Shown piece by piece: positions 32,271 through 32,427 of a stretch of 64,000 bases of DNA. Numbering within the stretch: position 1 is the first letter of the stretch; every line of letters begins with the position of its first letter. A program made the translations under genes and the position numbers. The DNA is taken from NCBI RefSeq assembly GCF_055900595.2, contig NZ_CM148325.1; one strand, given 5' to 3'. The notes under the pieces were generated by a model, which was given only the letters and a program-made list of their open reading frames with translations, was not told the origin of the DNA and ran no database searches.

Positions 32271-32346
32271 GGTGCGTCCGAGTGGACTCGAACCACCGAC
32301 CCCCACCATGTCAAGGTGGTGCTCTAACCAACTGAGCTACGGACGC
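32271..32346 (-). tRNA. valW: tRNA-Val (GAC), promoter-distal copy; valV/valW naming assigned by order
   Basis: Minus strand GCGUCCGUAGCUCAGUUGGUUAGAGCACCACCUUGACAUGGUGGGGGUCGGUGGUUCGAGUCCACUCGGACGCACCA; anticodon GAC; encoded CCA. Confidence 0.85.
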
Positions 32347-32350
32347 AGGA

Positions 32351-32427
32351 TGGTGCGTTCAATTGGACTCGAACCAACGACCCCCACCATGTCAAGGTGG
32401 TGCTCTAACCAACTGAGCTATGAACGC
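32351..32427 (-). tRNA. valV: tRNA-Val (GAC), promoter-proximal copy; valV/valW naming assigned by order
   Basis: Minus strand GCGUUCAUAGCUCAGUUGGUUAGAGCACCACCUUGACAUGGUGGGGGUCGUUGGUUCGAGUCCAAUUGAACGCACCA; acceptor/T-stem variant of the neighbouring copy. Confidence 0.85.

Follow-up and report, generated by a model that had tools for sequence, protein, structure and literature searches.

The window analysed here, the whole 64-kb stretch of DNA (64,000 nt), is an ordinary segment of the Escherichia coli chromosome running from gstA/pdxY to ydiP, as judged by overlaying the annotation of E. coli strain Z0117EC0005 on the assumption of colinearity; positions 32100-32700 are 100% identical to that strain. 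ARAGORN finds exactly two tRNA genes in the window, both of them tRNA-Val(GAC) genes on the minus strand. They sit between ydhQ and ydhR, and the neighbouring open reading frames also include ydhS and mdtK. Each gene is identical at 77/77 positions to its K-12 counterpart, valV (b1665) and valW (b1666), and the pair is the long-known E. coli valV-valW operon, whose genes, products, promoter and processing have already been described. The features of the operon are listed below in the direction of transcription.

32454-32482, minus strand: sigma-70 promoter from a consensus scan, with a -35 hexamer TTGCCA (32482-32477), a 17-nt spacer and a -10 hexamer TAATAT (32459-32454).
32428-32447, minus strand: 5' leader, which RNase P removes from the primary transcript (PMC2190699, mapped on to the window).
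32351-32427, minus strand: valV, the operon's upstream gene, 77 nt, of the tRNA-Val2B type, from ARAGORN, Rfam and identity to K-12 b1665; acceptor stem GCGUUCA/UGAACGC, T stem GUUGG/CCAAU, CCA encoded.
32347-32350, minus strand: the 4-nt valV-valW spacer, UCCU; the RNase P cut at its 3' edge releases valW.
32270-32346, minus strand: valW, the operon's downstream gene, 77 nt, of the tRNA-Val2A type, from ARAGORN, Rfam and identity to K-12 b1666; acceptor stem GCGUCCG/CGGACGC, T stem GGUGG/CCACU, CCA encoded.
32253-32273, minus strand: hairpin ACCAGAUU-UUCUU-AAUCUGGU, from a scan for terminator-like structures, starting at the discriminator base and CCA of valW.

Rfam model RF00005 scores valW at 69.6 bits and valV at 70.1 bits (gathering score 29), and both copies fold into the cloverleaf of a bacterial elongator tRNA, with stems of 7, 4, 5 and 5 bp in which 21 of 21 pairs are standard. 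The aligned sequences share the conserved tRNA core (T8, A14, G18 G19, GGTTCGAGTCC and the terminal ACCA). A first-pass annotation of this DNA had placed two adjacent tRNA-Val(GAC) genes at 32271-32427, and both are indeed called by ARAGORN and by RF00005; the right end of that span is correct, but the left end is one base short, with 32270 being the terminal A of the encoded CCA. Small RNAs are also found by Rfam at the positions expected for E. coli: RprA and RydB at 8374-8481 (minus strand) and 14083-14141 (plus strand), and STnc550 at 41020-41410 (plus strand), overlapping cydH, a small gene that lies upstream of purR.

The expression of this operon has been described by Mohanty and Kushner (PMC2190699), and its biology is also covered in PMC4176162. 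The two genes are transcribed as one dicistronic RNA, and primer extension puts its two starts at C residues that precede mature valV by 18-19 nt (PMC2190699); these correspond to the two C residues at about 32446/32447, window coordinates that are mapped from that paper and are possibly off by one. The published sigma-70 promoter, with 5/6 consensus matches in the -35 and 4/6 in the -10 hexamer, is the same as the one recovered by our scan of the window. A G+C-rich stretch, TCGTCCCC, lies between the -10 hexamer and the start site, and GCTAATATTCGTCCC is invariant across the recovered Escherichia, Citrobacter, Enterobacter, Superficieibacter and Acerihabitans loci. The two tRNAs are separated at the 4-nt UCCU spacer by RNase P alone, independently of RNase E, and the 3' trailing sequence is removed by PNPase and RNase II (PMC2190699). 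In the published pathway, then, one sigma-70 promoter gives rise to a short dicistronic precursor, each tRNA has its 5' end cut by RNase P (for valW at the 4-nt spacer), and 3' exonucleases trim the RNA back to the encoded CCA.

In E. coli the hairpin at the valW 3' end is 8 bp long, with 3 G-C pairs, a predicted folding energy of -12.3 kcal/mol and a z-score of -4.4, and is followed by a C/U-rich, G-poor tail (CUUCUCCUUU; 32252-32225). A close variant is present at the same place in E. albertii, and Citrobacter and Enterobacter cloacae have an 11-bp hairpin there with another inner sequence and the same GCACCA/UGGUGC outer pairs; in Citrobacter the 11-bp stem is followed by UUUUCU. The hairpins of these relatives lie in loci L073 (7316-7361), L056 (2990-3035) and L109 (6192-6237), and the structure is absent from three other Enterobacteriaceae examined. 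The hairpin is kept in four species, yet PMC2190699 reports no secondary structure downstream of the operon and infers that termination is Rho-dependent.

The same region gives an Rfam match on the plus strand, to RF02194 (HPnc0260), an uncharacterised Helicobacter antisense RNA family, at 110 bits over 32146-32308. Read antisense, it covers the 3' half of valW, the spacer between valW and ydhR and the opening codons of ydhR. Taken alone, its non-tRNA part reaches 43 bits, below the gathering score of 59; the scores of relatives are 59-68 bits, and the match is mostly complementarity to the 3' half of the tRNA. We do not count it as evidence for an antisense RNA gene, and the match is probably a quirk of the model.

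A gap-free alignment of the two tRNA genes spans 77 nt and shows differences at sequence positions 5, 7, 51, 65, 67 and 69. In the cloverleaf these six differences form three pairs: 5:68 is U-A in valV and C-G in valW, 7:66 is A-U in valV and G-C in valW, and 50:64 is U-A in valV and G-C in valW. Three pairs are thus altered in both members and none in a single member, each difference is a swap of one Watson-Crick pair for another, and both genes have the same D arm, anticodon arm, variable loop and T loop. The first-pass annotation had described a shared anticodon arm, acceptor strands GCGUCCG and GCGUUCA, differences in the T stem and compensatory changes that preserve pairing. All of this agrees with the alignment: the acceptor strands are as written (downstream and upstream copy respectively), the T stems are GUUGG/CCAAU in valV and GGUGG/CCACU in valW, and the three double-sided changes leave all 21 pairs standard.

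By a combinatorial estimate, the probability that six random differences in 77 positions form three complete pairs is 5.6e-6, and requiring restoration of Watson-Crick pairing as well brings it to about 2e-7; with random-placement probabilities this low, the observed compensation is real and not due to chance. A shuffle control on the two-sequence alignment is uninformative, since 65 of 500 shuffles reach the observed value, as (1/2)^3 predicts, and covariation was judged instead by the combinatorial estimate together with an alignment of 38 sequences. That tRNA stems change in a compensatory way is textbook knowledge, and the valV-valW pair is a clean teaching case, with all six differences contained in three compensated pairs, that carries little weight as a discovery.

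The products of the two genes can be named. The Val2A purification probe of PMC1851638 is complementary to valW on its 3' side (the GCGUCCG copy), and the Val2B probe is complementary to valV on its 3' side (the GCGUUCA copy); because these published probes match each copy, the assignments of valW to Val2A and of valV to Val2B are fixed. The evidence that both RNAs are present in vivo comes from the literature, and consists of this separate purification (PMC1851638), Northern blots (PMC2190699) and modification lists, where both Val2A and Val2B are given as bearing acp3U47. In addition, a modelling paper cites Dong et al. for the separation of Val2A from Val2B on 2D gels as distinct tRNA sets.

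The published determinants for valine are A35, C36, A73, G45, G3-C70 and U4-A69, plus G20 as a minor determinant in tRNA-Val1 (PMC9976931). The anticodon GAC and the six determinants from A35 to U4-A69 are present and identical in valV and valW, and position 20 is U in both genes, as against the minor determinant G20 of tRNA-Val1. The pairs 5:68, 7:66 and 50:64 all fall outside the published determinants for valyl-tRNA synthetase (ValRS). The affinity for EF-Tu is set mainly by pairs 49:65, 50:64 and 51:63 (PMC3239215), and the ddG values for the two pairs that do tune it, and that are constant here, are -0.9 (G49.U65) and +1.0 (U51-A63). At 50-64 the mean ddG is 0.0 for U-A and likewise 0.0 for G-C, and because of this the 50:64 swap is predicted to be neutral, leaving EF-Tu binding unchanged; these same values leave the idea that the T-stem change tunes EF-Tu affinity unsupported. 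The variable pairs are exactly those that the published data mark as free for both ValRS and EF-Tu.

The operon is near-invariant in E. coli. A 601-base query around the genes has a match in 5,425 of 5,426 complete E. coli genomes, and 5,417 of these 5,425 agree with the window at 99% identity or more over the 174 nt that cover both genes. Searches with synthetic array queries reveal no homogenised W-W or V-V array in the 5,425 complete genomes, and the best matches reach 97.1% identity to these queries, which leaves five of the six differences in place. With no homogenised locus and single-base variants only, gene conversion within E. coli was rejected for this locus.

Three single-base variants were read directly, and two of them are one-step natural intermediates between the V and W types in the E. 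coli population. In assembly OZ040950 (NZ_OZ040950.1, L004 109-185) valV carries U50G, giving a G.A mismatch at 50:64, and in strain 14EC047 (NZ_CP024155.1, L005 190-266) valW carries C5U, giving a U.G wobble at 5:68. Two ST131 assemblies have a search score equal to that of OZ040950, a likeness of score only. The third variant, in one of the inspected genomes, is a C-to-U change of the spacer (UUCU). Finally, strain CEC96047 (NZ_AP026104.1, L002 1671-3010) has an IS3-family element in place of valV and the native promoter; the operon retains no more than the very end of valV (..CACCA), the UCCU spacer and a complete valW. Loss of valV is seen in this 1 of the 5,425 genomes, and transcription of its valW would have to start within the IS element or pass through it.

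Comparison with other species used one genome per species, with at least 120 stretches listed, and is a sample with patchy taxonomic coverage rather than a census. Among the matches listed there are 38 distinct proteobacterial tRNA-Val(GAC) sequences, and in these G49.U65 is present in 38/38 and U51-A63 in 37/38, with pair 50:64 taking all four Watson-Crick forms. Ten pairs in this 38-sequence alignment, every acceptor pair included, have double changes; 99.9% of cells are paired, as against 30-50% when the partners are slid, and the covariation score is reached by no shuffle (again among the matches listed). The differences between valV and valW thus sit where the tRNA-Val(GAC) family is free to vary, provided that pairing is kept. 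One acceptor mismatch, A5.C68 (AGGCACG/CGCGCCU), recurs in the sampled loci, including Pseudomonas loci L028 and L060, and since it is seen at least eight times it is a fixed feature and not a sequencing error. A contig labelled as a Klebsiella pneumoniae MAG (L061) was left out as an example of the Enterobacteriaceae because it is probably mis-binned; its acceptor is of the AGGCG type, which among the matches listed is otherwise found mainly in loci labelled Burkholderiales or Pseudomonas.

The V-then-W pair, with the same two sequences, is present in E. albertii, Citrobacter werkmanii, Enterobacter cloacae, two more Enterobacter and Superficieibacter, and the spacers outside E. coli are 4-17 nt long (both among the matches listed). 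Within the same sample, Photorhabdus and Arsenophonus have two W-type copies, and the second type of Acerihabitans and Yersinia carries U5-A68, U7-A66 and A50-U64. The sampled Gammaproteobacteria often have their tRNA-Val(GAC) genes in tandem, two to five per array, among the matches listed. The array of Aeromonas caviae (L121 2965-3453) has five genes of two interspersed types, the second of which has U5-A68, A7-U66 and U50-A64 as in valV, plus further compensated changes. In Yersinia aldovae (L023 1703-2078) A50-U64 is common to all three copies and the acceptor stems differ, a pattern that fits a short conversion tract spanning both sides of the T stem. With the same types in the same order across genera of the Enterobacteriaceae, and a similar split in Yersinia, Acerihabitans and Aeromonas, the V/W divergence is evidently old and stably maintained. 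The first-pass description of the genes as a tandem duplicate consequently holds for their adjacency, but not for a recent duplication, as the same two types in the same order turn up in several Enterobacteriaceae genera.

We consider it very probable that valV and valW are two co-transcribed, functionally equivalent copies that diverged long ago by compensatory substitution and act mainly in gene dosage, a reading in which the determinant maps behind the functional equivalence were made mostly on other tRNAs (tRNA-Val1, tRNA-Phe and tRNA-Leu). The GAC anticodon of both tRNAs reads GUC and GUU, and Val2A and Val2B would be equivalent in function, the pair serving mainly to supply dosage for decoding these two codons. 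The swaps would be old compensatory substitutions at the few stem positions where a change of base spares ValRS and EF-Tu. The persistence of two distinct copies can be accommodated by the geometry of the tRNA: about 60 nt separate one strand of the acceptor stem from the other, and a crossover or a short conversion tract in the 43-nt identical core would give a mismatched acceptor. Hybrid V/W molecules are predicted to lose about 5-7 kcal/mol relative to valW, and the cloverleaf is no longer their best predicted fold. Such mismatched recombinants would presumably be selected against, so that the copies stay distinct, and slow change between the V and W types is expected because each step needs two mutations and recombinants mismatch.

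A different possibility is that Val2A and Val2B are functionally specialised, and that selection keeps two tRNA bodies for reasons of stability, processing rate, modification, stress response or non-ribosomal use of Val-tRNA. Conservation of both types across genera and the recurrence of the split are also what selection for two distinct tRNA species would be expected to produce: both types are invariant in Escherichia, Citrobacter, Enterobacter and Superficieibacter (among the matches listed), Acerihabitans, Yersinia and Aeromonas each have a second type with its differences in the same three pairs, and no homogenised array exists in 5,425 E. coli genomes despite the 4-nt gap between the genes and their 43-nt identical core. 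The two RNAs also differ in predicted cloverleaf stability (-26.2 for valV and -31.3 for valW), valV being less stable by about 5 kcal/mol because of three G-C to A-U replacements, and this gap could be relevant to folding, turnover or temperature response. If the two were specialised, the split at 5:68, 7:66 and 50:64 from Aeromonas to Escherichia would represent an old, selected division of labour within one anticodon, and would bear on the question of why bacteria keep several tRNA bodies per anticodon. However, the changed pairs lie outside the published ValRS determinants (PMC9976931), for EF-Tu the mean ddG of the 50:64 swap is 0.0 (PMC3239215), and a shared promoter and precursor leave no room for separate transcriptional regulation. 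The natural isolate CEC96047 lives without valV, slow change is expected anyway where each step takes two mutations and recombinants are mismatched, and the cited literature describes no functional difference between Val2A and Val2B. On balance we regard specialisation maintained by selection as unlikely, and we are slightly more doubtful still that the two bodies are non-equivalent in a step apart from the reading of codons, for example in folding or heat stability, in turnover during stress, in being recognised by a nuclease or toxin, or in a non-ribosomal use of Val-tRNA.

It is also conceivable that one of the two types came from another tRNA-Val lineage, through horizontal transfer or recombination, and settled beside the resident gene. 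The second type of Aeromonas, with its valV-like U5-A68, A7-U66 and U50-A64, shows that V-type states exist outside the Enterobacterales, but these shared states may be convergent, as there are few Watson-Crick alternatives for each pair. Apart from the six positions, moreover, valV and valW agree over 71 nt, with the D arm, anticodon arm and variable loop all alike; several genera share the arrangement, the promoter and the gene order; and the sampled Gammaproteobacteria so often have two to five tRNA-Val(GAC) genes in an array that local duplication is the simpler account. An imported copy is thus very unlikely in our view. That one copy is a decaying or non-functional duplicate, or that the pair arose by recent duplication with chance mutations, has weak backing from the single isolate that lost valV to an IS3 insertion and from the rare one-step variants (valV U50G, with G.A, and valW C5U, with U.G), but is so improbable as to be refuted by scores of about 70 bits against the tRNA model, the intact pairing and perfect cloverleaves of both copies, their conservation across genera, the purification of both RNAs from cells (PMC1851638) and the probability of 5.6e-6 for three complete pairs arising from six random differences.

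The window comes from another E. coli strain than K-12, and its operon is without any difference from that of K-12, having the same gene sequences, UCCU spacer, gene order, neighbours (ydhQ, ydhR, ydhS and mdtK) and promoter hexamers. Like valV-valW, the leuQPV, valU and lysT operons have short spacers that are not A/U-rich, and their tRNAs are separated by RNase P and not by RNase E (PMC2190699, PMC4176162). What distinguishes valV-valW from these is the Rho-dependent, structureless terminator reported for it, although the DNA does show a hairpin overlapping the CCA end of valW. In their products, Val2A and Val2B resemble Thr1/Thr3 and Tyr1/Tyr2 of E. coli, in which one anticodon is likewise carried by several genes with gel-separable products; in this comparison, which takes the other families by name only, Val2A and Val2B are set apart by the adjacency of the variants in a single transcript and by the restriction of their differences to compensated stem pairs.
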